Below, piece by piece: positions 10,224-21,174 of a stretch of DNA of 64,000 nt. The translations under genes and the position numbers were made by a program. Every line of letters starts with the position of its first letter. Positions within the stretch are counted from its first letter, which is position 1. Origin of the DNA: an uncultured Acidobacteriota bacterium (GTDB lineage Bacteria; Acidobacteriota; Thermoanaerobaculia; Multivoradales; UBA5704); assembly GCA_963770895.1 (NCBI GenBank), contig CAVYRF010000002.1:4256001-4320000 (forward strand), read 5' to 3'. The notes beneath the pieces are model-generated. The model did no database searches and was not told the DNA's origin. It worked only from the letters and a program-made list of their open reading frames with translations.

Positions 10224-11282
10224 ATGCAAGGCGAAAAACAAGCACGGGAACAAGAGCTCCTTCGCGCAGTGACGGAGGCGGCTGGGCATCACGGATTACG
10301 CCTGGAACTCCGCGGCCACAGCCCCCGGTTGCCGGAAGGACAAGCCGAGGGCCTGGTGCGCCTACATCATCCTGCGGGGGTGGCCGACCTGGTTACAGAG
10401 GTCAAAACGCAGCTGACCGCCGCCGCCCTGGGACCGGTCTTGGCCAAGATGCGCCGCTACGGCCGGCCGGCGCTCCTGGTCACGGACTACGTCAACCCGA
10501 AGCTGGCCGAGCGGCTCCGCGAGCAGGAGGTGTTCTTCCTGGACGGCGCGGGCAATGCGTTCGTGCGCGATCGCGGCCTCTACGTCTTTGTGACGGGACG
10601 GCGCAACGAGCTGGAGCGGCAGCGGTTTCAACAGCGCGTGCGCGCGTTCCGGCCCAGCGGCTTGAAGCTCATCTTCGCGTTGCTCAGCAGGCCCGAGATG
10701 GTGGGGGCGGACTACCGGACGCTGGCGCAGGCAACGGGGGTGGCTCTCGGGACGGTGCAGTGGGTGATGCGAGACCTTACCGCGGCATCCTTCGTGCGGC
10801 GGGTGGATCGGACCCGCCGCGTGCTGGTGCGCCCGGCGGAACTGCTCGAATCCTGGGCGCAGGGGTATGCGCAGGATCTTCGCCCCCGTCTGCTGTTGGG
10901 CCGGTTCGCCACCGCCGACGTCGGCTGGTGGAAGCAGACCGACCCCCGCAAGTACGGCTGTCTGTGGGGCGGCGAACCCGCGGGCGCCCGGCTGACCGGC
11001 TTCCTGAAACCGGGGACGCTGACCCTGTATGCGGATGCGGTTCCGGCAAAGCTGCTGATCCACCAGCGCTTCAAAAGAGCGGAGGACGGCCAGGTCGAGG
11101 TGCTGAAGAAGTTCTGGCGCTTCGCCGATGCTGGGGAGGAGCGCGGTATGGTGCCGGCCGTCCTCGCCTACGCCGATCTGCTGGCCGTCGGCGACAGCCG
11201 CACCGTGGAGGCCGCGAACCGCCTGTTCGCGGGACAGATCGATGGACCTTTCCGCTCATACCTCGCTCGCGCCGCTGGCTGA
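10224..11282 (+). CDS. Type IV toxin-antitoxin AbiEi-family antitoxin (DUF2186-like)
   Basis: LLVTDYVNPKLAERLREQEVFFLDGAGNAF, wHTH-like YRTLAQATGVALGTV, LWGGEPAG, VPAVLAYADLL. Overlaps a downstream nucleotidyltransferase remnant. Confidence 0.75.
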   Translation: MQGEKQAREQELLRAVTEAAGHHGLRLELRGHSPRLPEGQAEGLVRLHHPAGVADLVTEVKTQLTAAALGPVLAKMRRYGRPALLVTDYVNPKLAERLREQEVFFLDGAGNAFVRDRGLYVFVTGRRNELERQRFQQRVRAFRPSGLKLIFALLSRPEMVGADYRTLAQATGVALGTVQWVMRDLTAASFVRRVDRTRRVLVRPAELLESWAQGYAQDLRPRLLLGRFATADVGWWKQTDPRKYGCLWGGEPAGARLTGFLKPGTLTLYADAVPAKLLIHQRFKRAEDGQVEVLKKFWRFADAGEERGMVPAVLAYADLLAVGDSRTVEAANRLFAGQIDGPFRSYLARAAG

Positions 11283-11514
11283 GGCGGTCGCGGCGGTGCT
11301 GCGACCGGCATCCGCCGCGGGGATCGAGATCTACATCGCCGGCGCGCTGGCGCGCGACCTTTGGTTGGAGTTTGCCTACGGCATCGATACCGGACGCCGG
11401 CCCGGCGAGCATCAGCGGATGAACGCGCTGGGGTTCGCGGAGGCCACGCGCCTGATTCCCTTGTGCGCTGCTGGCTGCTTGCGGCAGCAAGAGGCCGATG
11501 CTAGTCTAGCTTGA
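11242..11514 (+). pseudogene. Truncated AbiEii-like nucleotidyltransferase toxin
   Basis: ATG 11242 overlaps the antitoxin 3' end. MDLS...IYIAGALARDLWLEFAYGIDTGR matches the family N-terminus, but similarity breaks at about 11400, just before the expected T-x-D-x-D catalytic motif. Confidence 0.65.
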
Positions 11515-11556
11515 CGCCATATACGACGTCTCTCAAGTTCAACCCAGGAGCTCATC

Positions 11557-11733
11557 ATGCGCAAGTGCAAGAAACTGGCATTGAACCGCGAAACCCTCCG
11601 CCACCTCGATACCCTGCGGCAAGCGGCCGGAGGGGCCACGGCGGCGACCGCCTGCAACCAGCTCACCTGCGCTTTACACGCTAGTTGCATGGATACGTGC
11701 CCGAAGTTTTGCAAAGGAACCACAGTCTGCTGA
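11557..11733 (+). CDS. Cys-rich lanthipeptide-like RiPP precursor, 58 aa (not in the ORF track)
   Basis: RBS CAGGAG. MRKCKKLALNRETLRHLDTLRQAAGG|ATAATACNQLTCALHASCMDTCPKFCKGTTVC. Leader LxLx[KR]x5L ending in GG; core has 6 Cys and 7 Ser/Thr. Confidence 0.8.
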   Translation: MRKCKKLALNRETLRHLDTLRQAAGGATAATACNQLTCALHASCMDTCPKFCKGTTVC

Positions 11734-11791
11734 CAGTCTTAGGGCCGGGCTGAACGCGCAGGCTCAGGCTCACCGCAGAGCCCAGGCCGTG

Positions 11792-11817
11792 GCCGCCGGC
11801 AGCCCTGTGCCGGCGGC
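11792..11817 (+). terminator. Stem-loop downstream of the precursor gene
   Basis: GCCGCCGGCA-GCCCTG-TGCCGGCGGC, a perfect 10-bp stem with only a weak U tract. Confidence 0.4.
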
Positions 11818-12193
11818 TTGACGCCGCCCTGTTGGTGGCAACTCCAAGTACGACGTGCTAGCCAGATTCTGACGGTGGGGAGGATCGCGGGGGACGAGGG
11901 CGAACAGGGTGATAAATCGATCCGAGATATCCAGGTTTGAAGCGAGCTGGCCCTAGGCCCTGCGGCAAGAGACCCGAGGCGGCAGCTCCGGGGCGGCCGC
12001 CGGGAGGGCTCCCCTTGTCGTCGCGCTGCGGGCTCGCGGGGCGGCAAGCGGCTTGGCGGTGAGCTGTCTTGCCAGCGGCTCGCCGCATTGCCTCGCCCCA
12101 GAGCGCCGCCAAGTGGACCCACCCGTCAGCCGCCCCTCCCCGGACTGCCAGCGATGGCTCCGGCGGCCGCGCAAGATGGGTGCTCAGTCCGGG

Positions 12194-13627
12194 TCAGTCC
12201 CGGTCCAGCGACCGCAGCGGCGCGCGATTCTCCAGCCGGCGAATGAGCTCTTGCGCCTGCGCTACGGTCGCCGTCTCCTGGAGGGCCGCCTCCCAGAACA
12301 GCCGCAGCGCTGCGAGCGCATCGCGCTCGATTCCCTCGGCCGAGAAAATCGATAGCATCGCCGCGGCCAGCGCCTTCACCTCCGCGGTCCGACCGGCCGC
12401 CAGGTCGATCACCGCGAGCTCGAGCGACACGACCGCCGCGTCGAGGGCATCGTGCCTCTCGACTAGGTAGTCCCGCACCTCCGCCAGTGCCGCTCGCGCC
12501 TCCGCATACCGTCCCTGGCCCTCATCCACACGCGCGCTCAGCCAGGTCACCCGCAGGCTGTCCAGATCGTTGCCGAGGCTGCGCGCGAGATCGCGTGCCT
12601 CCTCCACGCGCGCCCGTGCCTCCTCGAACTTCTTCAGGTGACAGAGGTTCACCGCCAGGTTGAAGGCCACGCACAACCGATCCCGGAGATCGCCGTGCTC
12701 TCCCATCAGGAGCACCGCCTCCTGCAGCGCCCGGAGCGCCCCCGGGACGTCGCCGGCCTGCTCCAGAGCGAAAGCAGCCTTGATGAGAAGCCGGCCCGCC
12801 ACCTCTGGCGGCGCACTGCCGCGAGCCCGTTCCAGCAAGGCAAGCGACTCAGCCGTACGCATCTGGTCGCGGCGCAGCGACGCTTCGAGGTCGAACAGCC
12901 GCCATTCCGGCAGGCGCCCCTCTGGATCGCCGTCTTGCCCGGCCTGCCAAAGTCTCCAGGTCTCCCGCCACTCCGCCTCGGCCTCAAGCAGTTGTCCGGA
13001 AAGCCGCAGACTGTTGGCCAGGAACGCATGCGCCCATCCTGCAAGCCGCTCCTTCCACGCCTGGTTCCCTGGGGCGTTCTGTGCAGCGCGCACCGCCAGC
13101 CGCGAAAGCTCGACCGCTGCGGTGGCGTCGCGCGGCGCCGCCCGGATGCTCGCGCCGCACAACCGCTCGGCGAGGGTCGGAAGCCCCCGTCCGTCCGCCG
13201 TCGCCGGGCCGGCGCTCGCGCCTCGGTCAGCGCTGTCCGGGTCCACGAACGCAGCCGCGAGGACACTGAGCGCAGCGCCGGACGCTGTCTTGAGGTCTGC
13301 CAGAAGATCCTGGTCGCGCAGCCCGGTCTCTTTTCCCCAGTCCATGGGTGCCGACGCTCGCACCTGACCGCCGTCCGACTCCATCAAGGTGCGAACGAGG
13401 CGGATGACGGGCGGCAGGATGCTCAGCGCCACGTCGACCGGCAGCCCCACCGCGGCGATCAGGCGCTCGACCGTCGCATCGGCCGGCTTGAGCTTGCCCT
13501 GCTCGAAACGCAGGATGCTCTCCGCCTCGACACCCGCCCTGGCGCCCAGCTTGACCTGGCTCCAGCGGCGAGAGGCCCGGAGCAGCCGAACCAGGAGCTT
13601 CACGTCCTCCGGCTCCATCCTCCCCAT
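12194..13627 (-). CDS. XRE-family HTH + TPR-like repeat protein (paralog 1)
   Basis: N-terminal HTH LVRLLRASRRWSQVKLGARAGVEAESILRFEQGK; helical repeats with AFLANSLRL and LPEWRLFDLEASLRRDQ. Start uncertain (13693, 13645, 13627 or 13618); GGAGGA precedes 13627. Confidence 0.8.
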   Translation of the reverse strand: MGRMEPEDVKLLVRLLRASRRWSQVKLGARAGVEAESILRFEQGKLKPADATVERLIAAVGLPVDVALSILPPVIRLVRTLMESDGGQVRASAPMDWGKETGLRDQDLLADLKTASGAALSVLAAAFVDPDSADRGASAGPATADGRGLPTLAERLCGASIRAAPRDATAAVELSRLAVRAAQNAPGNQAWKERLAGWAHAFLANSLRLSGQLLEAEAEWRETWRLWQAGQDGDPEGRLPEWRLFDLEASLRRDQMRTAESLALLERARGSAPPEVAGRLLIKAAFALEQAGDVPGALRALQEAVLLMGEHGDLRDRLCVAFNLAVNLCHLKKFEEARARVEEARDLARSLGNDLDSLRVTWLSARVDEGQGRYAEARAALAEVRDYLVERHDALDAAVVSLELAVIDLAAGRTAEVKALAAAMLSIFSAEGIERDALAALRLFWEAALQETATVAQAQELIRRLENRAPLRSLDRD

Positions 13628-13755
13628 CGTGCCCGGTTCCTCCATGGTTGGTGCACATTCTCTGACGTATGAGGTAACTTTCTTCACCACCAATGGCGCT
13701 CCAGCGGGCGACCACCTCCGGCCGGCTCCGGGGGCGTCAACGAAAGGAGCTTCGC

Positions 13756-14250
13756 ATGCCTCTGTCTCGCCCCCGCCCTCTCTGCATCCTCCTGCTGGTG
13801 CTCGCCCTTACCGCCTTGCCTCAGGCCCTCCTCGCCGCCCCCCGGTCCGAGGCGCCTGAATCCCAGGTGCCGAGCCTCTCCGCTCTGCTCCCCTCGTTCT
13901 GGAACTGGCTGGGCTTCGCCTCGACCGAAACCCGGTGCGGCGCCGACCCAAACGGAGGTCAACAGTGCAACCCGAGCAGCGGTAGTGACCAGCGTCCAAC
14001 CACCCAGCACGTGCGCGTCCTGTCCAGCCGTCCTACCTCCTCCAACAAGGCCTTATCCGGCAGCAACGTCAGGACGGACACCCGTTGCGGTCTCGACCCC
14101 GACGGCGTTGTGCAGTGCACTGATGGATCAAGGCGTCCCACCTGGTCCGGCGGCACCGTCGGGACGGACACCCGCTGCACCGCAGACCCTGACGGCGGCC
14201 TCAAGTGCGCTGCTGGAAGCAGCATCCAGCCTCCAACGCTGCGCCAGTAG
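13756..14250 (+). CDS. Small secreted protein with three T[ED]TRCxxDP[ND]GxxxC repeats
   Basis: RBS AAAGGAG; signal peptide MPLSRPRPLCILLLVLALTALPQALLA; repeats at 13924-13968, 14074-14118 and 14164-14208. Confidence 0.8.
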   Translation: MPLSRPRPLCILLLVLALTALPQALLAAPRSEAPESQVPSLSALLPSFWNWLGFASTETRCGADPNGGQQCNPSSGSDQRPTTQHVRVLSSRPTSSNKALSGSNVRTDTRCGLDPDGVVQCTDGSRRPTWSGGTVGTDTRCTADPDGGLKCAAGSSIQPPTLRQ

Positions 14251-14316
14251 CCGCCATCTAACAGAGGCCCGCTCCCGCGTTCGGTGCTCCGGCGTGGCTG
14301 GTGCCGACCTCATGTC

Positions 14317-15921
14317 TTAATGAGCTTTGGCCTTGAGGTCCGCCGCCGTCTCGAAGAAGGCCAGAAGCCGGCGGGCCTCCGCCACGGTTACCGCCTCCTG
14401 CCGCGCTGCGTCGTGGAACAAGCGCACGGCGATGAGCGCTTCGGGCGCGACGCGCTCCGCGATGAAGGTCTGCACCATGAACTCCGCGAGCACCTTCACC
14501 TTCTGGGTGCGACCCTCCTCAAGGTACAGCACCGCGAGCTCCAGGGACACCATCGCCATCGCCAGGGGGTTCCTGGCGACCGCGTAGGCTCTACGGACGT
14601 GCTCCAGGACGCGGTACGCCTCCTTTCTCTGTCCCAGCCCCGCCGCAACCCGCCCACTCAGCCATTCCATCTTCAGGACATCCAGCTTATTGCCCAAGCT
14701 CTGTGCAACCTGCCTGAGACCGGGCAGTTGCTCCCAGGCCTTCGCGTACTGACCCAGGTGGCACAGGTTGACCGTCAGATTGAAGCCCAACACGCACTGG
14801 TCGCGCAGGGTTCCGGACCTCTTCACCAGGGGCTCCGCCTCGCGCAACGCGGCCACCGCGCCTTCGAGATCGCCAGACTGTTCCAGCGTGAATCCCTTCT
14901 TGACGAGAATCCTCCCCTCAACCTCAGCCGGCGCCGCCGCCTGAACCCTGTCGAGCAGCTCCAGAGCCTCCGCGAACCGCCCCTGGTCGCGCCGCAGCGA
15001 CGCCTCCAGGTCCCAGAGCCGCCACTCCGGGAGGATGCCGTGCGGATCGTCTCCGGCGCTCCAGACGGACCACGCCGCCGCCATTTCCAGGTCCGCCTCG
15101 CGCAGGCGGCTTTGGACCCGCAGGCCGTTGGCGACAAAGGCCCGGGTGAAGCCGCGGAGGCGGCTGCGGAAGCCATGGCCGACGTCTGCGAGCTCTGCGG
15201 CGCGGCCCGCCAGCGATGCGAGGTCCGTGGCAGCCCCCGCCCCCGTCGCGGCCACCTGTGCGCTTTCTTCGGCGAGCCGCTCCGCCATCGCCCACGTCTG
15301 GAGCTCCTCCAGGCTTTCCACGACCAGCTGCCGCTCCCGGTGATCGAAGCCTTGCAGCTCCTGCCAGAGGCGCGCCGCGTCGCGGCGCGCGGCTTCGATC
15401 CGCCGGCGGTGCAGCAGCGCCAGCACGCGCGGTACCACAAGCGCCGCCATCGCGAGGCCCAGCCGCGCCGCGGTCTCGCGGGCCAGCCGCTCGTCGAGGA
15501 GCGTCGGATCCTCCGAGTGACGCTCCGACGCTGACGGGGTGGCGGCCCTGTCCGCCTTCTTGCGGCGCCTCTGCCCCTGGCCGCGCCTGCGCTCGGGCCG
15601 GCCTGGCACCTCGACACCCGATGCCACCGTGGGAGGAAGCACTGCTTCCGGTCCTTCGCTCTCCCCCCGCCGCGGCGCCTCCGGCCGGACCACCGCCTGG
15701 ACTGCCAGGAGCGCCGCGTCGACATCGGCCCGGTTCAGACCCATGTGGCGCGCAAGATCCACCAGCCGTTCGTGGTCCAGCTCTCGGAAGCCGGTCTCGA
15801 AATGACCCAACTGGACCGGGTGAAACCCTTCGGCCGCCGCCAGCTCCTCGCGTGTCCAGCCGGCGGCTTGCCGAAGCCAGCTCAAGGCCAGACTTCTGGA
15901 TGGTGCGACAGCCTTGGGCAT
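14317..15921 (-). CDS. XRE-family HTH + TPR-like repeat protein (paralog 2)
   Basis: HTH LSWLRQAAGWTREELAAAEGFHPVQLGHFETG; LQTWAMAERL, AFVANGLRV, LPEWRLWDLEASLRRDQ, FNLTVNLCHLG. Confidence 0.8.
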   Translation of the reverse strand: MPKAVAPSRSLALSWLRQAAGWTREELAAAEGFHPVQLGHFETGFRELDHERLVDLARHMGLNRADVDAALLAVQAVVRPEAPRRGESEGPEAVLPPTVASGVEVPGRPERRRGQGQRRRKKADRAATPSASERHSEDPTLLDERLARETAARLGLAMAALVVPRVLALLHRRRIEAARRDAARLWQELQGFDHRERQLVVESLEELQTWAMAERLAEESAQVAATGAGAATDLASLAGRAAELADVGHGFRSRLRGFTRAFVANGLRVQSRLREADLEMAAAWSVWSAGDDPHGILPEWRLWDLEASLRRDQGRFAEALELLDRVQAAAPAEVEGRILVKKGFTLEQSGDLEGAVAALREAEPLVKRSGTLRDQCVLGFNLTVNLCHLGQYAKAWEQLPGLRQVAQSLGNKLDVLKMEWLSGRVAAGLGQRKEAYRVLEHVRRAYAVARNPLAMAMVSLELAVLYLEEGRTQKVKVLAEFMVQTFIAERVAPEALIAVRLFHDAARQEAVTVAEARRLLAFFETAADLKAKAH

Positions 15922-16525
15922 TGCGCTGGTGTCCTCCAGGGTGACGCCGCGGCGACGACAGCGCCGCCTTGGGACCGGATGTTGCCGCCTTCAGGAGATC
16001 TCGTTCTCGCGCCAGAAATTGCCTGCTTCGAATACGGTATTGATTCTACGCGAATGCTCCTTTCATGCAAGCCTTTGGGCGTGTGGGTCCCAACCATGCG
16101 CCCTGTCTGCCGCAACATCTTCGGTTGCAGGGTGGAGGCACTGCCTGGGCCAGCGCGCGGCTGCCTCGTACGCCCCGTCATGTTCTCTGACGTAGCAGAT
16201 ACCTTTCTTGGCAGGTGGCAGTCGCACTGCCCCTGCACTCGCGTGGACAGCGAACGCTGCGGAGCTTCCTGCCAGCGGACCTTACCCCTGACGTTATGTC
16301 GCAAGAAGATCGTTGTGCCTTGCATCAGAAACACGTGCTGTTTCGTCGATTTTGTTGACCCTGCGTAATTGCTTCTTTCGCGCAAACGACAAGGGCGTTA
16401 GGGTTTCGGCCATGCGCACCGACGCCCCCGACATCCACGATGCCGCGCTCGGGGAGGCAATCGAGCGCGGCGCAGGTCACGGGGCGCTTTGACAGGAGGG
16501 GCATTCTTTGGCTAACGCGCACGAC

Positions 16526-17221
16526 ATGCCGGAGCGCAAAGCCCGGCTCGGGGAGGGGGGCGGTCCGGATGGTGAGACGGCCCATCCCGATCCCAGGAGT
16601 GCCGGCGCCAGACACGTCGAGATCGGCCTGATGGCGCGGCTGCTGACCGGCCACGCGCAGGACGAGGAGGTCCATCAGCGCCTGCTGCCCCACATGGTCG
16701 GCCAGTGTCCTGAGTGCCAGCGCTTGCTTGCCGGGCTGGAGGACCTGCGCTGTGAGGCGGCGGCGCCGGACGTCCTGATTGCCGCGACCGAATGGCCGGC
16801 GGCGCCCGGCCTGTGGCAGGGGCTGGCGCCGCTCTCTTTCGACGCGCAGCTGCGGGCCGCCGCGGCGGAGGAAACCCTTCACACCTGGGGACTCTGCCGG
16901 CTGCTCCAGGTCAAGAGCGGCGGCGAGGCGCGCGAGCATCCCGTTGCGGCTGGCCGGCTTGCCCAGCTGGCCCTGGTGATCTCCGAGCATCTGGCTCCCG
17001 GCTACGACTCCGACTGGGTGCGCGACCTGCGGGCGCTGTCGCTGGCCTGCCTGGGCAACGCCCGCCGCCTGATGGCCGAACCGGGCAGCGCGGCGGACGC
17101 GTTTGCGGCGGCGAGGGTCGAGTGCCAGGCGGGCACCGGCGACCCGGCGGTCGAAGCCGAGGTGCTGGTGCTCGAAGCCCTGCTGCTGCGCGACCCATCC
17201 ACGCCCCATCTTGGCTTATGA
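16526..17221 (+). CDS. Short paralog of the TPR family with an N-terminal H-x4-C-x2-C (anti-sigma-like zinc) motif in place of the HTH; possibly truncated
   Basis: LLPHMVGQCPECQRLL; LHTWGLCRLL and SLACLGNARRL align with LQTWAMCLRL and AFLANAHRL of the neighbours. Confidence 0.6.
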   Translation: MPERKARLGEGGGPDGETAHPDPRSAGARHVEIGLMARLLTGHAQDEEVHQRLLPHMVGQCPECQRLLAGLEDLRCEAAAPDVLIAATEWPAAPGLWQGLAPLSFDAQLRAAAAEETLHTWGLCRLLQVKSGGEAREHPVAAGRLAQLALVISEHLAPGYDSDWVRDLRALSLACLGNARRLMAEPGSAADAFAAARVECQAGTGDPAVEAEVLVLEALLLRDPSTPHLGL

Positions 17222-17232
17222 GGACATCGCCC

Positions 17233-18528
17233 ATGGCGCGAAATCGCAGTTACGAGCGCGGCGCAGCCTTCCCTGGCGAGACGCCGCGGTATCCCTTTCT
17301 TGCCGCGGGGCGCGACCCTGGGGGCGCGACCCCGATGGCCGATCTAGTGGCCCGGGCGCAGCAGGCCGCGGAGCTGGTCATGGAGCTGATGGCCATGCAG
17401 CGGACGGACCGCCTGCAGGCCGCACGGCACGAGACGCGGTTCCACCGCGTCGCCCTGCTCACGCTGCTTAACCTGGAGGCCGAAAGTGCGCTGCTGCAGG
17501 CGCGCGGCCGCGACGTGGGCGAACAGCAAGCCGAAGCCGCGACGGTCCTGGCCGCCTGCCTGCCGCGCGATCCGCAGGGCCGCGTCGGACGGGCGGGAGC
17601 GCTGGCGCACTGGCTGCTCGGCAAGGCCCGTCTCCACCGTGGCGACCTGGCGGGCGCGGCGCAATCGTTTGCGGAGATGGTCGCGTTCCTGGACGACCCC
17701 GATCAACCCAGCGAAGAAAAAGCGCTAGCCGCCGCCGGCTGGGCGCAGGTAAAGCAGCAGGTGGGCGCCTGGGACGAGGCCGTGGCGCACTATCAGCAGG
17801 CGGCCTTCGCTTTTGCGGACGCCAGAGCGGCCCTGCCCACCGCGGCCTGCCTGGCGGAAATCGGCTTCATCCTGCGTGCGACCAACGGCGACCTGCTGGT
17901 CGCGCGGCGCAACCTGGAGCGTGCCTGGAAGTTGCTGGACCCCGCGCTCGCCCCGACGGTGGCGGCCCGCGTCGCCCTTGGCTGCGCCGAGATCGAGGCC
18001 CTGCTGGCCGGAGACGCCGAAAGCCTGTGGCTGGAGCGCGCGCATAGCCTTTATCCCCTGCCGGCGCAGCCCTGCGAAGAGCTGGCCCGCGCCTGGAGCG
18101 AAGGCCGCATCGCCACCGCGGCGGGACGCTATGGCGAGGCCGAGCCGCTGCTGCAAGGGGTGCGCTTGCAACTCCTTTCGCTGGGGAGCCTGGCCGAGGC
18201 GGTGACGGTCTCCTGCGACCACCTGACCCTGCGGCTCGAAGCGGCGCAGCCGCCGCACGTCGATGCCCTTGCCGATGCCCTGGACAAGGCGTTTCCCCAC
18301 TCTGACGGCGCGACCTGGGCTGGCGCGCTGCGGGAGCTGGCCGAGACCGCGGCGGCGCGGGGACGCGATGCCTACTACATTGCCGTGCAGCTGCTGGTCG
18401 GGCGCCTGGCAGCTCAGGCACCGGTCTCGGGCCGGCCCGATCTGTTGCCGCCCCTGCGCGCCCTGACCGACCGGCTGCTGCGGAACCGCGGCGAGTTCGA
18501 AGATCCGCTGGGCGCCGTGCCCTCGTGA
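17233..18528 (+). CDS. TPR-like helical repeat protein
   Basis: GAGGA RBS before ATG 17233; AHWLLGKARLHRGDLAGA, AWSEGRIATAAGRYGEAEPLLQGVR; the stop overlaps the next start (GTGA). Confidence 0.65.
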   Translation: MARNRSYERGAAFPGETPRYPFLAAGRDPGGATPMADLVARAQQAAELVMELMAMQRTDRLQAARHETRFHRVALLTLLNLEAESALLQARGRDVGEQQAEAATVLAACLPRDPQGRVGRAGALAHWLLGKARLHRGDLAGAAQSFAEMVAFLDDPDQPSEEKALAAAGWAQVKQQVGAWDEAVAHYQQAAFAFADARAALPTAACLAEIGFILRATNGDLLVARRNLERAWKLLDPALAPTVAARVALGCAEIEALLAGDAESLWLERAHSLYPLPAQPCEELARAWSEGRIATAAGRYGEAEPLLQGVRLQLLSLGSLAEAVTVSCDHLTLRLEAAQPPHVDALADALDKAFPHSDGATWAGALRELAETAAARGRDAYYIAVQLLVGRLAAQAPVSGRPDLLPPLRALTDRLLRNRGEFEDPLGAVPS

Positions 18529-20666
18529 GCGCCCCTGACTCCGCATCTGCCGAAGCCTGTCCTGCGAGCGGTGCTGCGCGCACGCCCGACCAGGACCGAC
18601 CTTTGCGAATGGGCACTGGCATGGGACCTCATCGCAACCGGCCCGGTGCTGCCCCGGCAGCCGAGGTGCAGGGGACATGCACCAAGCGTCCACCGTTGGG
18701 CCTGGCGCTTTCCCTTTTGCGGCTCACCATGGGGTGGTCTCAAACCGATCTTTCCAAGGCCAGCGGCATCGTGATCAGCCAGATATCGCAATACGAAACG
18801 GGCAAAGCACGTTTGACTCAGGCTCGCTTTCATCACTTCGCCGCGGTGATGGGCGCCGCGGAGGGACTGGGCGAGTGCGCAGTAGCGACCTGCGCGCTGT
18901 TGTCTGCCGTATCCAGCCCGGCGGACTCTGTTTCGCCAGGCGGTCTTTCCCGCGACGAGCGGCAGCAGGTCAACGAGTTCACATTAAAAATGTTGCCTGC
19001 GCTGGCGGAACTTGTGCAGGAGCACGCCTCCGCAACGATCCTGATGCGGCGCGCCGAAGTGGCGCAGCTGGAAGCAGATGCACATTGGCGAGTGCTGGTG
19101 ACGCTCAGCCAAAGGGAACGGCGTCAACGATTGGAAACCGCTCTGCCTCTACAAACCTGGGCCATGTGCCTGCGCCTGTGCGACGCGAGCGTCGCCGCCG
19201 GTGCTCACAGTGTCACAGAATCCATGCAGCTTGCTGAGCTGTCCTTGCGTGCGGCCCAACTGGCGCAGGGTGACGCTGGCGGGCTGCTGCGCTTGCAGGG
19301 CTACGCACGCGCATTCCTTGCAAATGCTCATCGGCTATGGGGAGATCTGGCGGCGGCCGATGCCGAGTTCGCTGCGGCAACGGGACAGTGGGGTGAAGGT
19401 AATCAGGCCGCGGAATACACGCTTCCGGAATGGCGGCTCCTCGACTTGGAATCATCGCTCCGCCTTGCCCAAAAGGCTTGGCCTGCCACGGTGCGACTGC
19501 TCGACCGGGCCATTGCTCTTGCTCCCGCAAGCGAAATTGGCCGGCTGCTGGTCAAGAAAGCGACGGCTTTACGGCTCGCCGGCCAGGTCGACGATGCGCT
19601 CGCTTCGCTGGACGCGGCGGCGCCCCTGGTCGCGTCGCTGCCAGAAGTGCAGTGGATGGTGCAGTATCACCAGGTTGCGTGTTTGTGCCAGACAGGGCGC
19701 TATCGAGAGGCCGGCGAGTGCCTGCAGACCGTAGGTGGTGCGCTTGCCGGCGAGTCTACTTTGGAAATCATCAGGCGATTGTGGCTGACGGCACGCGTGA
19801 CCGCGGGCCAGGGCGATCGGCGACAAGCGATCGCCGATTTGGAATGGGTGCGTAGGGAACTCATGCCGTTCGCCGCTCGCTACGAGTCAGTCCTGGTGTC
19901 GATCGAGCTGGCGATTTTCCACCTCGACGATAGAGAGTGGAGCTCGAAGATTCGCGGCTTGGTGCAAGACATCTTGGAAACAGTGAAATCAAGATGGGGC
20001 TCGCGAGGCCTGGCAGCCAGCCTTGGTGAGTTATGTCAGTCGGCTGAGAAGCTATGGCAGCTGCACGAAGACCTGGAGCTTTTGAGGGTGGAGGACTGGG
20101 TCTTCGAACCCTTGACGACGGACGGTAGCGAGCACAGGGCGCACATCCCCCGCTTGGAACAGGCCGATACGGTCTCGATTCGCGACGAATTGAGCGTCCT
20201 GGTGCGCCTTTTGCGCGCAGTCCCTGGGTTTAGCCAGGACGCGATGGGCGCCAGAGCGTCGATCGACCGCACTACGATCAGCCGCTACGAGACCGGCGAC
20301 ATGATCCCCTCGCGGGCGCATCTCGCGCGCCTGGGCGATGCTGCCGGTATTTCACTGCCGTTTTTGGAGGGCGTGTTGCTGCCGGTAGTCCGCCTTATGT
20401 GCGTGAAGAGGGCCTGTTTGCACAGATCCTGGTTGCTGGCACAGCAAGCTGATGAGGTGGCTGCCGCGTTCGATCGGCAAATGGTGGCGACCCTGCGCGC
20501 AGGCATCGCCACGTTTGCAGCGGCGCTCCGGTGTCGGCCTGCTGTTGCTGCTCAACCAGGCCGGACACCGCCAGCCGGGTTGGGTTGCGCTAAGGCTGGC
20601 GAGTGGGCTGGCCCGGCTGGGCCAGCTGGGCCAGGAGGTCGCGCCAGGCGTGGCCGCGGTGGCTGA
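18525..20666 (+). CDS. XRE HTH + TPR + second C-terminal XRE HTH protein (paralog 3)
   Basis: HTH1 LSLLRLTMGWSQTDLSKASGIVISQISQYETG; LPEWRLLDLESSLR; HTH2 LVRLLRAVPGFSQDAMGARASIDRTTISRYETG. Visibly lower GC than flanks; 3' end overlaps rdgB on the other strand. Confidence 0.7.
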   Translation: MSAPDSASAEACPASGAARTPDQDRPLRMGTGMGPHRNRPGAAPAAEVQGTCTKRPPLGLALSLLRLTMGWSQTDLSKASGIVISQISQYETGKARLTQARFHHFAAVMGAAEGLGECAVATCALLSAVSSPADSVSPGGLSRDERQQVNEFTLKMLPALAELVQEHASATILMRRAEVAQLEADAHWRVLVTLSQRERRQRLETALPLQTWAMCLRLCDASVAAGAHSVTESMQLAELSLRAAQLAQGDAGGLLRLQGYARAFLANAHRLWGDLAAADAEFAAATGQWGEGNQAAEYTLPEWRLLDLESSLRLAQKAWPATVRLLDRAIALAPASEIGRLLVKKATALRLAGQVDDALASLDAAAPLVASLPEVQWMVQYHQVACLCQTGRYREAGECLQTVGGALAGESTLEIIRRLWLTARVTAGQGDRRQAIADLEWVRRELMPFAARYESVLVSIELAIFHLDDREWSSKIRGLVQDILETVKSRWGSRGLAASLGELCQSAEKLWQLHEDLELLRVEDWVFEPLTTDGSEHRAHIPRLEQADTVSIRDELSVLVRLLRAVPGFSQDAMGARASIDRTTISRYETGDMIPSRAHLARLGDAAGISLPFLEGVLLPVVRLMCVKRACLHRSWLLAQQADEVAAAFDRQMVATLRAGIATFAAALRCRPAVAAQPGRTPPAGLGCAKAGEWAGPAGPAGPGGRARRGRGG

Positions 20667-21174
20667 GGCGGTCTTTTTCGGCGTCGGTCAGCTCGCCGAA
20701 GGTGCGGTCGTGGCCCTGGGGGGCAAAGACCGGGTCCCAGCCGAAGCCCGCGGCGCCGCGGGGCGGCAGCACCAGGGTGCCGGCGGCGGCGCCTTGCGCG
20801 ATCAGGGTGCGGTCGGGGTCGCGGTAGTAGAGGGCGCAGCGGGCGACGGCGCGCGGGTCGCCGAGCGCCAGACCGACGCGGGCCAGGGTCTGGGCGCCGG
20901 CGGCGTCCAGCATCCATTTGACCAGCGGACCGGGGAAGCCGCCCAGCGCCGCCAGGTCGAAGCCGGCCTCCTCGACGATCAGCGGGCGCTCCAGCCGGCG
21001 CCATGCTTCGTCGCCCTTGTGGCGCAACACTTCCAGCAGGTCCAGCGACTGCATCTCCGGCAGGTCCATGGCGACGGCCGCCAGGCCGGGGCCGGCGATG
21101 CGGCGCGCCTCTGCGAGCTTGCCGCGGTTGCCGGTTACCAGGACGTAGGGAAGAGGCTGCGGCGCCGTGCTCAT
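20590..21174 (-). CDS. rdgB: Non-canonical purine NTP pyrophosphatase (Ham1/RdgB family)
   Basis: LVTGNRGKLAE, LGGFPGPLVKW, GFGWDPVF, TFGEL...EKDRLSHRG. Confidence 0.9.
   Translation of the reverse strand: MSTAPQPLPYVLVTGNRGKLAEARRIAGPGLAAVAMDLPEMQSLDLLEVLRHKGDEAWRRLERPLIVEEAGFDLAALGGFPGPLVKWMLDAAGAQTLARVGLALGDPRAVARCALYYRDPDRTLIAQGAAAGTLVLPPRGAAGFGWDPVFAPQGHDRTFGELTDAEKDRLSHRGHAWRDLLAQLAQPGQPTRQP

Follow-up and report, generated by a model that had tools for sequence, protein, structure and literature searches.

The window analysed here is a stretch of 64,000 nucleotides from an uncultured Acidobacteriota bacterium of the class Thermoanaerobaculia (assembly GCA_963770895.1, contig CAVYRF010000002.1, positions 4,256,001 to 4,320,000 of the forward strand). 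Our subject is a group of three genes within it: pep, which encodes a small, predicted exported pro-protein, and the two genes that flank it, XT1 and XT2, which encode regulators with an N-terminal helix-turn-helix (HTH) domain of the XRE type and a tetratricopeptide repeat (TPR) domain. We refer to such regulators as XT, and to a pep gene with its flanking XT genes as a cassette. The features of the locus are as follows, with lengths in amino acids (aa), Shine-Dalgarno abbreviated to SD, AlphaFold2 to AF2 and open reading frame to ORF.

12194-13645, minus strand: XT1, A-type XRE-HTH and TPR regulator, divergent from pep, 483 aa
13391-13615, minus strand: HTH domain of XT1, A type (hmmscan envelope, residues 27-101 of the 499-aa ORF; Pfam HTH_31)
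12224-13174, minus strand: predicted TPR sensor domain of XT1, about eight TPR-like helix pairs (AF2 helices 158-474; Pfam TPR_12)
13646-13755, no strand: divergent intergenic region, presumed promoters and operators, with the SD sequence AAGGAG at 13744-13749
13756-14250, plus strand: pep, predicted exported pro-protein, 164 aa, identical to public gene call P0004
13756-13836, plus strand: putative signal peptide of pep, residues 1-27 (by sequence reading: basic n-region, hydrophobic core, ALLA/AP)
13876-13929, plus strand: Trp-rich amphipathic helix of pep, residues 41-58, LLPSFWNWLGF (AF2 helix 41-58)
13936-13968, plus strand: core loop 1 of pep, CGADPNGGQQC (motif match)
14086-14118, plus strand: core loop 2 of pep, CGLDPDGVVQC (motif match)
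14176-14208, plus strand: core loop 3 of pep, CTADPDGGLKC (motif match)
14317-15921, minus strand: XT2, B-type XRE-HTH and TPR regulator, convergent with pep, 534 aa
15691-15906, minus strand: HTH domain of XT2, B type, residues 6-77 (profile typing)

The ATG at 13645 is the start of XT1 in a 100% identical public gene call (P0014, 483 aa); the ORF itself extends to a TTG at 13693 (12194-13693, minus strand, 499 aa). With the start at 13645 the divergent spacer between XT1 and pep is 110 bp, against 128 bp with the later ATG chosen in the initial annotation of this DNA. On the plus strand an ORF spans 13693-14250, and its inner ATG at 13756 gives the 164-aa pep product, with AAGGAG 6 nt 5′ of that ATG. 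pep and XT2 converge across a spacer of 66 bp. In Pfam, XT1 matches HTH_31 (E 1.6e-7) and TPR_12 (E 7.7e-13), and XT2 matches HTH_31 (3.8e-7) and HTH_3 (1.3e-5), its TPR matches falling under the Pfam cut-offs. No Pfam or NCBIfam family was found for pep, and no NCBIfam model scored over its cut-off for XT1, pep, XT2 or the third XT gene of the window, XT3. Neither a signal peptide nor a long hydrophobic segment is seen in an XT receptor on reading the sequence. A membrane-anchored sensor was considered and rejected, as neither XT1 nor XT2 has a convincing transmembrane segment and the linker of the AF2 model is merely of low confidence.

The initial annotation had described pep as flanked by two XRE-TPR genes, one divergent and one convergent, and as carrying three C-x2-DP[ND]G-x3-C loops of 11 residues each. 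The genes, the SD sequence, the signal peptide as read and the three loops are all in place, so that observation was correct. The trio consists of real genes, and it is strongly non-random and conserved.

Linkage and make-up of the pep family

The association of pep with XT holds in both directions. Starting from pep, all 11 loci fetched outside the source genome (L004-L014) have XT homologs inside their 1.5-kb flanks. Starting from XT, we collected 68 loci from species-representative genomes by means of the XT motifs WR[LV][LFW]DLEAS and FNLxVNLCH. These motifs were derived from relatives of pep-linked XT proteins, not from all XRE-TPR proteins, and the 68 loci therefore sample that XT subfamily only. 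A strict pep ORF, with at least two matches to C..DP.G, is present in 57 of the 68, and every one of these 57 has the arrangement XT(+) > < pep(-) < > XT(+). Among the 11 other loci, L016, L019 and L021 have a single-core or looser pep, and several are short contigs. ORFs with at least two C..DP.G matches number 63 of 6,741 in the 68 loci versus 6 of 91,021 genome-wide in the source organism, where all six lie between XT genes. The enrichment of DPxG ORFs beside XRE-TPR homologs that the initial annotation had proposed as a check is thus found, as a linkage that is near-obligate both ways.

In the source genome, 48 ORFs match the XT C-domain at E <=1e-5; among those with weaker matches, most do not adjoin a pep. 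Clustering of ORFs of at least 120 aa from the 68 loci recovers XT in 68 loci and an antisense shadow of XT in 66; the flanks hold no further conserved gene, and the cluster next in frequency is present in 8-9 of 68 loci. With no other conserved neighbour, the regulators and the peptide form the whole unit, as in RRNPP cassettes.

All 68 related loci come from metagenome-assembled genomes of Thermoanaerobaculia, Acidobacteriota or Holophagales, and not from Bacillota; the XT homologs that bear names are from Thermoanaerobaculia. Within the same family, 19 of 24 other genomes match the pep profile, and none of 16 genomes from eleven other families of the order does. At class level, a broader profile matches 11 of 151 genomes, including weaker matches in three further families. 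Copy number is high in places: the profile finds 10 matches in the source genome, 22 in G013 and 16 in G018, both same-family relatives in which the cassette appears, from these counts, to have undergone a large lineage-specific expansion. Tandem arrays of the form XT-pep-XT-pep(-XT) were seen in L027, L044, L051, L071, L077 and L082. In such an array the middle regulator converges on one pep and diverges from the one that follows, and in L044 and L077 it has an A-type HTH.

In the six-frame translation of the 8.16-Mb source genome, the loop motif of the initial annotation has 6 matches, of which 3 fall in pep, 2 in a pair of paralogous pep genes and 1 in an unrelated long ORF. A profile search is more inclusive and counts ten pep-like genes, that is, pep and nine others. 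Multi-core copies lie at C2:3839137, C2:5556236, C2:1901571, C1:2039163 and C2:495038. Single-core copies are also present, and two of them end in Cys-less cores at the extreme C-terminus (…GSAADPYGG and …GISMDPNGGG, each followed by the stop). Among metagenome proteins, taken as representatives of 50% identity clusters, the profile finds 1,876 at E <=1e-3 and 536 at E <=1e-10, and nearly all of the 150 that were listed are 95-170 aa long. The pep starts printed for related loci are ATG in all but one case, nearly all with an SD sequence.

For family statistics we used 157 members, made up of 13 sequences and the top metagenome matches, with proteins of >300 aa removed. Their common layout is a Sec signal peptide, a Trp-rich helix and 1-6 tandem cores of the form G-C-x-hydrophobic-D-P-x-G-x(0-3)-C, and the repeat unit reads [D/K/E]-[N/E/A]-G-C-x-[I/L/A/V]-D-P-[N/D/S]-G-x-C. 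Three or four cores are present in 135 of the 157; a crude signal-peptide test is passed by 150, and the Trp-rich helix motif is found in 127. A Cys stands at position -3 of 501 of 508 cores, and another lies 0-5 residues past the Gly in 495 of 508. The median distance from the end of the last core to the C-terminus is 5 residues. The conserved core is accordingly hydrophobic-DPxG, with a flanking Cys pair that is usual and not universal. For the putative ligand, a DPxG core is a better description than the fixed CxxDP[ND]GxxxC loop of the initial annotation.

AF2, run on a 13-row pep alignment, predicts only two elements, the helix of the signal peptide (7-26) and the Trp-rich helix (41-58), the latter second only to the signal peptide in the quality of its prediction. 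For the repeat region pLDDT is <50, and disorder is predicted. This predicted disorder, the repeated cores near the C-terminus and the minimal members that end in a single core make pep look like a pro-peptide and not a folded protein. A thrombospondin-type loop and a DxDxDG calcium loop were considered for the cores and rejected, as the motif spacing, by reading, fits neither.

In soil-metagenome contigs of related strains, the flanks of pep are conserved at ~90% or better, and the linker at 13970-14093 is divergent or of variable length, with joints at 13969/14145 and 14052/14151. The spacers between cores seem, from such comparisons, to be fast-evolving.

Two regulator types with a common putative sensor domain

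The HTH domain of XT1 is of the A type (78.0 versus 38.8 bits) and that of XT2 of the B type (68.9 versus 33.9 bits). The convergent gene, B (here XT2), is a full-length HTH-TPR gene in 57 of the 57 strict-pep loci. The divergent gene, A (here XT1), always encodes an XRE-HTH and occurs in two length forms. It is full-length at about 24 of the 59 pep genes examined and short at about 18, counts that rest on rough ORF picking; the short form, of 220-330 aa, retains no more of the C-domain profile than its first ~125 positions. In an HTH tree (FastTree, 75 columns), the two types separate almost cleanly, with 4-5 label changes versus ~29 after shuffling and none of 500 shuffles as low. The two regulators are, then, anciently distinct HTH types, A divergent and B convergent, and they are not equivalent.

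In the TPR tree the A and B labels are unclustered (16 changes versus 17.1 shuffled, 148 of 500 shuffles as low), and in 12 of 19 cases the TPR domain of A is sister to that of B from its own cassette. Within a cassette the median identity is 31% for HTH and 65% for TPR (n=12), compared with 37% and 47% for random loci; XT1 and XT2 themselves are 48% identical in their TPR domains and 33% in their HTH domains. At the DNA level, the similarity between A and B starts abruptly at the TPR-coding part, the HTH and linker being without detectable similarity, and over the TPR-coding part the identity reaches 91.9% over 1,061 nt in L043, 83.9% in L061, 74% in L033 and 73% in L036. In an IQ-TREE tree of the source-genome copies, XT1 groups with XT2 (93/87) and C2:493491 with C2:495521 (98/94), and the B domains of four other cassettes form one clade (100/99). 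The TPR domains are thus homogenised within each cassette, with sharp DNA boundaries.

A further XT gene of the window bears on the relation of the two heads.

18525-20666, plus strand: XT3, 713 aa, with a B-HTH (residues 55-117), a TPR domain and an A-HTH (residues 553-626); pep-less

A Pfam scan finds two HTH_31 stretches in XT3. Its TPR domain groups with three other copies in the source genome (100/100), and copies of XT3 that are 75-80% identical adjoin two other cassettes. From its domain order, XT3 looks like a single-chain fusion of B and A, without a pep gene, in an extended island. We read this as evidence of the Rosetta-stone type, which would suggest that the A and B heads act together.

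The fold of the receptor was modelled on XT1 with AF2 from a 69-row alignment, with a mean pLDDT of 85 and a pTM of 0.81. In the model, residues 12-91 form the HTH helices and residues 93-151 a linker of low confidence; the 16 helices that follow at 158-474 make about eight TPR pairs. By Pfam and AF2, XT1 thus has the architecture of an RRNPP receptor, an XRE HTH followed by a C-terminal TPR-type domain. A Foldseek search of the PDB returns OGT, designed CTPR proteins, LGN/Pins and subunits of APC among its matches, together with Rap proteins at E ~1e-4 (3ulq at rank 4, then 4gyo, 4i1a, 6t3h, 6t46, 3q15 and 4i9c). A second structural search is headed by LGN (Z 22.8), Pins (21.6) and APPBP2 with its RxxGP degron (21.0). 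It also finds the Rap of phage phi105 with peptide (8rte, Z 20.2), RapI (19.6), NprR-NprX (18.1), RapH (17.7), domain III of MalT (17.3), the pLS20 Rap (17.2), PlcR-PapR (16.4, over model residues 12-413, HTH included) and AimR (15.3). Helical repeats reach Z ~13 by arrangement alone, and the values for XT1 are higher. PF17874 (TPR_MalT) is a precomputed match on some XT homologs. As modelled, the XT fold is a peptide- or ligand-binding TPR scaffold, with a layout like that of NprR and AimR in which an HTH precedes a long TPR domain. A predicted complex of the XT1 TPR domain (150-483) with mature pep (28-164) gave a score of 0.01 and a mark of 0.32; it was run without controls and carries no weight either way.

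A peptide-signalling reading and its rivals

If the cores of pep are ligands of the TPR domains, the two might be expected to vary together. The comparison used 45 cassettes in which a strict pep occurs with a B-type HTH and a B TPR domain, with core distances taken from per-protein profiles of four variable positions (-2, -1, +2 and +4 relative to DP). Core distances correlate with TPR distances at r = 0.395 and with HTH distances at r = 0.278. The partial Mantel correlation of core with TPR given HTH is 0.295 (permutation p ~0.0005), while that of core with HTH given TPR is 0.042 (p 0.31). The core is weakly correlated with the rest of pep (r 0.137), and the partial correlation of core with TPR given the N-terminal part of pep is 0.377 (p ~0.0005). 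The variable core positions therefore track the divergence of the TPR domain and not that of the HTH domain. Such covariation is what ligand-receptor co-evolution predicts, and it would still fall short of proof. Taken together, the cassette-specific cores, the homogenised TPR domains, the core-TPR correlation and the predicted disorder fit a role of the cores as cassette-specific TPR ligands.

The best reading of XT1-pep-XT2 is that of an RRNPP-like peptide signalling cassette, in which we place moderate confidence; that the trio is one of about ten paralogous peptide-signalling cassettes in the source genome we regard as an evenly balanced proposition. The steps that we infer, namely export, processing, uptake, binding and regulatory output, would run as follows. 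pep would be made as a pre-pro-protein and exported by Sec, and its repeat region would be cut into short DPxG peptides, usually disulfide-closed loops of 9-11 residues. These would accumulate outside the cell and then re-enter it through the outer membrane and next through the inner membrane, for which an Opp-type permease may serve; the source genome encodes two SBP_bac_5 (Opp/Dpp-type) binding proteins, which only permit peptide import across the inner membrane as a possibility. In the cytoplasm, the two flanking regulators would each receive the peptides on the concave side of their TPR domains. These regulators would have a cassette-specific sensor in common and differ in their DNA-binding heads, A and B, so that a single signal could act at operators of two kinds, or through an A/B pair bound to a composite operator, the promoter of pep itself being among the targets. 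The presence of many cassettes per genome, each with its own core variant, makes the pattern one of orthogonal channels. A fuller version can be put forward tentatively: a peptide quorum sensing native to diderm bacteria, with multi-copy disulfide-stapled DPxG pheromones, two receptors for each, sensors matched by conversion, distinct heads and 10-20 orthogonal channels.

Several likenesses connect the cassette with the RRNPP/RRNPPA quorum-sensing systems of Bacillota and their phages, especially NprR-NprX and AimR-AimP, whose receptors have an HTH and nine TPRs, and PlcR-PapR. The receptors have an N-terminal XRE-type HTH and a TPR superhelix. Beside them is a gene for a small pro-peptide with a Sec-type export signal and its active, or putatively active, part at or near the C-terminus, and pep, with its SD sequence and predicted signal peptide, is such an adjacent small gene. 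Many paralogous cassettes occur per genome, with no dedicated transporter or protease in the cassette, and the structure scores include NprR (Z 18.1), PlcR (16.4), AimR (15.3) and Rap (17-20). There are also differences. The host is a diderm member of the Acidobacteriota, and no sequence homology is detectable. Each peptide here has two receptors, with different HTH types and a common sensor domain, and pep carries 1-6 tandem cores, usually Cys-flanked, in addition to a conserved Trp-rich helix.

A parallel for the paired receptors is Rgg2/Rgg3-SHP2/SHP3 of Streptococcus pyogenes, a pair of paralogous receptors that respond to one class of short peptide and differ in their action on DNA. Both are Bacillota proteins with five TPRs, and each has its own shp gene, from which the receptor gene diverges. 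The cassette resembles this arrangement in having two receptors, one peptide class and divergent receptor and peptide genes, and differs in that one pep lies between the two receptors, whose sensors are kept alike by segmental conversion. LGN/Pins, APPBP2 and MalT are the best or near-best structural matches to XT1; they have no fused XRE HTH and no paired gene for a secreted peptide, and no more follows from these matches than that the fold is a scaffold for binding ligands or peptides. For the tandem cores, a parallel is offered by tandemly duplicated Phr pro-peptides, described in the available text of PMC11343458 as exported precursors with several pheromone copies each that are released by extracellular proteolysis. 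The Phr pheromones are linear penta- or hexapeptides of Bacillota, whereas the pep cores are DPxG turns mostly between two Cys, and in pep three or four cores are the rule.

As far as the accessible parts of two papers go, RRNPP systems are treated as a trait of Bacillota (PMC10075063, PMC12700828); the RRNPP_detector paper, in the same portion, assigns peptide systems to Bacillota and small-molecule signals to Pseudomonadota and Actinomycetota (PMC10075063). Our searches, which did not extend to bioRxiv supplements and subscription journals, found no literature that links RRNPP and Acidobacteria, and for Thermoanaerobaculia and quorum sensing the text available held only passing mentions and nothing relevant. 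This agrees with the initial annotation, which knew of no characterised example. Most likely, the cassette is an RRNPP-like signalling variant in a phylum without a characterised one. What is new here is the A/B typing of the HTH domains, the domain-limited homogenisation of the TPR domains, the XT3 fusion, the minimal Cys-less pep and the core-TPR covariation.

A number of points weigh against this reading. First, the evidence from fold is not specific: the eukaryotic LGN and Pins are the best matches, APC and designed TPR proteins stand alongside Rap, and RRNPP receptors do not score above unrelated TPR proteins. In a sequence search of the PDB with a profile of 69 XT sequences, only generic HTH or TPR chains are found among the best 60 of 143 matches, and XT proteins pass no NCBIfam model. 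Homology of XT to RRNPP receptors is thus unproven; what the models suggest is a resemblance in predicted fold that generic TPR proteins match equally well. Second, neutral gene conversion between neighbouring direct repeats could account for the homogenised A and B TPR domains, and so could dimerisation of the two domains. Third, Mantel tests are liberal and the cassettes are related and non-independent; there is more noise in the HTH distances (75 columns) than in the TPR distances, and the short alignment of the signal peptide is a noisy covariate. Part of the signal could come from linkage alone, as pep adjoins XT-B at its TPR-coding end. Fourth, characterised RRNPP pheromones are linear and unmodified, according to the text available from PMC12998947 and 10.1101/2025.10.09.681396, whereas the cores of pep are mostly putative disulfide loops. 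Fifth, the host is a diderm, whose outer membrane stands in the way of a peptide of ~1 kDa, and across the 68 loci neither a transporter nor a protease is linked to the cassettes. Finally, every step of the proposed signalling cycle is deduced from sequence and models. The initial annotation had proposed an RRNPP-like module with the loops as TPR ligands, and this is partly supported: the receptor and pro-peptide architecture and the linkage stand, and the two regulators are not equivalent.

The first alternative, which we consider somewhat unlikely, is that pep is a regulated secreted effector whose tandem disulfide-stapled turns would work outside the cytoplasm, for instance as multi-headed loops like those of protease inhibitors, as an antimicrobial or interference peptide, as a metal- or Ca-binding peptide or as a matrix component, and that XT-A and XT-B sense some other cue, or each other through their TPR domains. 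Linkage is equally expected for a regulator and its target, and pep is divergent from XT-A with a short common control region. No import machinery is linked to the cassettes, and nine-residue disulfide loops with a central Pro recall canonical inhibitor loops. The homogenised TPR domains could reflect A-B heterodimerisation or neutral conversion, and the XT3 fusion holds A and B heads together without an intervening pep gene. However, an effector is not expected to need up to ~20 separately regulated paralogs per genome, and no immunity, export or target genes lie beside any cassette. The repeat region is predicted to be disordered. Single-core Cys-less members that end in the core would make poor inhibitors or structural proteins. 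In addition, an effector model does not predict that the core positions track the TPR domain better than they track the HTH domain or the rest of pep.

It is also conceivable, though improbable in our view, that the role of the TPR domains is coupled to export. TPR grooves bind helices as well as extended peptides, and the domains could bind unexported pre-pep, by its Trp-rich helix or its cores, so that regulator activity would report the rate at which pep leaves the cell, with no re-import, as with the TPR chaperones of type III secretion. This would remove the outer-membrane problem and give a role to the Trp-rich amphipathic helix, which, signal peptide aside, leads the rest of pep in both conservation and quality of prediction; the core-TPR covariation is compatible with it. 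Against it, the Sec signal peptide is ordinary and pep would normally be exported quickly, while the repetition of the cores and their conserved Cys pairs (501 and 495 of 508), which would form only after export, are left unexplained; we know of no precedent for such feedback with XRE-TPR proteins. The last alternative, that pep is a multi-core precursor of a ribosomally synthesised and post-translationally modified peptide (RiPP), its Cys-x-x-Asp cores cross-linked or modified in some other way by unlinked enzymes and the XT proteins regulating the pathway, is very improbable: tandem identical cores are typical of such precursors, and the source genome is rich in Cys-rich peptides with a GG leader, but pep has a Sec signal peptide in place of a leader, the 68 loci share no conserved gene for a modifying enzyme, a protease or an exporter, and Cys-less single-core members exist.

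Should the cassette indeed be a signalling system of the RRNPP type, genetically encoded peptide signalling by way of cytoplasmic TPR receptors, which is treated as a hallmark of the Gram-positive Bacillota, would extend to diderm bacteria; for Gram-negative quorum sensing, the usual description is one of small molecules (PMC10075063). This would raise the question of how a peptide of ~1 kDa passes the outer membrane, and would provide a natural set of orthogonal peptide-receptor pairs. The family is large, with 1,876 pep representatives and up to ~20 copies per genome in abundant soil Acidobacteriota. If XT proteins were remote homologs of RRNPP receptors, they could serve as an outgroup to root that family; an outgroup drawn from remote structural homologs is described as still wanted in the available text of a study of RRNPP structural phylogeny (PMC12700828). 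Whatever the function, domain-limited homogenisation of two sensors that flank the gene of a presumed ligand is an unusual evolutionary pattern. The peptides, the two TPR domains and the 110-bp control region are all short and synthesisable.

Control region, transcripts and neighbouring genes

Within 12000-16400, no sigma-70-like promoter was found (0 sites), and the two terminator-like sites, neither at a gene end, equal the 2.0 expected. A search of 65 regions 5′ of pep for a palindromic operator common to them gave GGTG-N-CACC as its best candidate, present in only 7 of the regions, and none of the inverted 4-mers is strongly prominent. In many related cassettes (L015-L082), a GC-rich extended hairpin is seen within the ~60 nt 5′ of the pep start, for example at L071:7191-7263(-) and L044:5872-5944(-), the region for comparison in the window being 13690-13758. 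Its 3′ arm covers the SD sequence of pep. Over 61 aligned 5′ regions, 73.8% of cells pair, where slid partners give 40-57%, and covariation scores 0.240 as against 0.09-0.13, in a test that leans towards this structure because the hairpin was taken from one member before pairs were counted. G-U pairs outnumber A-C mismatches (179 versus 108), which favours an RNA in the sense of pep. RNAalifold, on a MAFFT alignment of the same 61 regions, gives no consensus structure. The fold is strong in L071 (z -5.3) and weak in L002, and the copy in the window itself has no significant RNA fold (z -0.16). Rfam has no family in 11000-21000 of the window, and in three related loci only sub-threshold matches to hairpins of the miRNA type elsewhere. 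The hairpin may serve in translational control, or it may be a palindromic operator.

One soil metatranscriptome contains two 151-nt contigs identical to 14251-14401 and 14479-14629, which cover the pep-XT2 spacer and the 3′ end of XT2; pep is uncovered in that run. These contigs are without strand information and the library may contain DNA, so we do not count them as evidence of expression. An atlas search returned only Acidobacteriota clusters, with scores of 0.82-0.84, below the level that counts.

Other genes surround the cassette. Just upstream, at 10224-11282 on the plus strand, a 352-aa ORF has an AbiEi_2 domain (E 5.5e-34), which we take to mark an antitoxin or regulator of a type IV toxin-antitoxin system. 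A 58-aa ORF at 11557-11733 (plus strand) has a leader-like N-terminus, KKLALNRETLRHL...GG, and a Cys-rich C-terminal half, and resembles a precursor of a peptide with a double-glycine leader. Neither Pfam nor NCBIfam has a family for it; a tblastn search of the genome gives dozens of weak paralogs, 17 of them at E <=1e-3 besides itself. Two ORFs lie between XT2 and XT3. That at 16508-17221 (plus strand) has no family match and contains an H-x4-C-x2-C motif. The other, at ~17341-18528 (plus strand), is weakly TPR-like (TPR_7 and YbgF, both under cut-off) and is not conserved across the 68 related loci. A 65% identical copy of it lies beside the L001 cassette, and copies of 48-56% identity lie near C2:495041; with copies beside other cassettes, this ORF is part of an extended island in the source genome.

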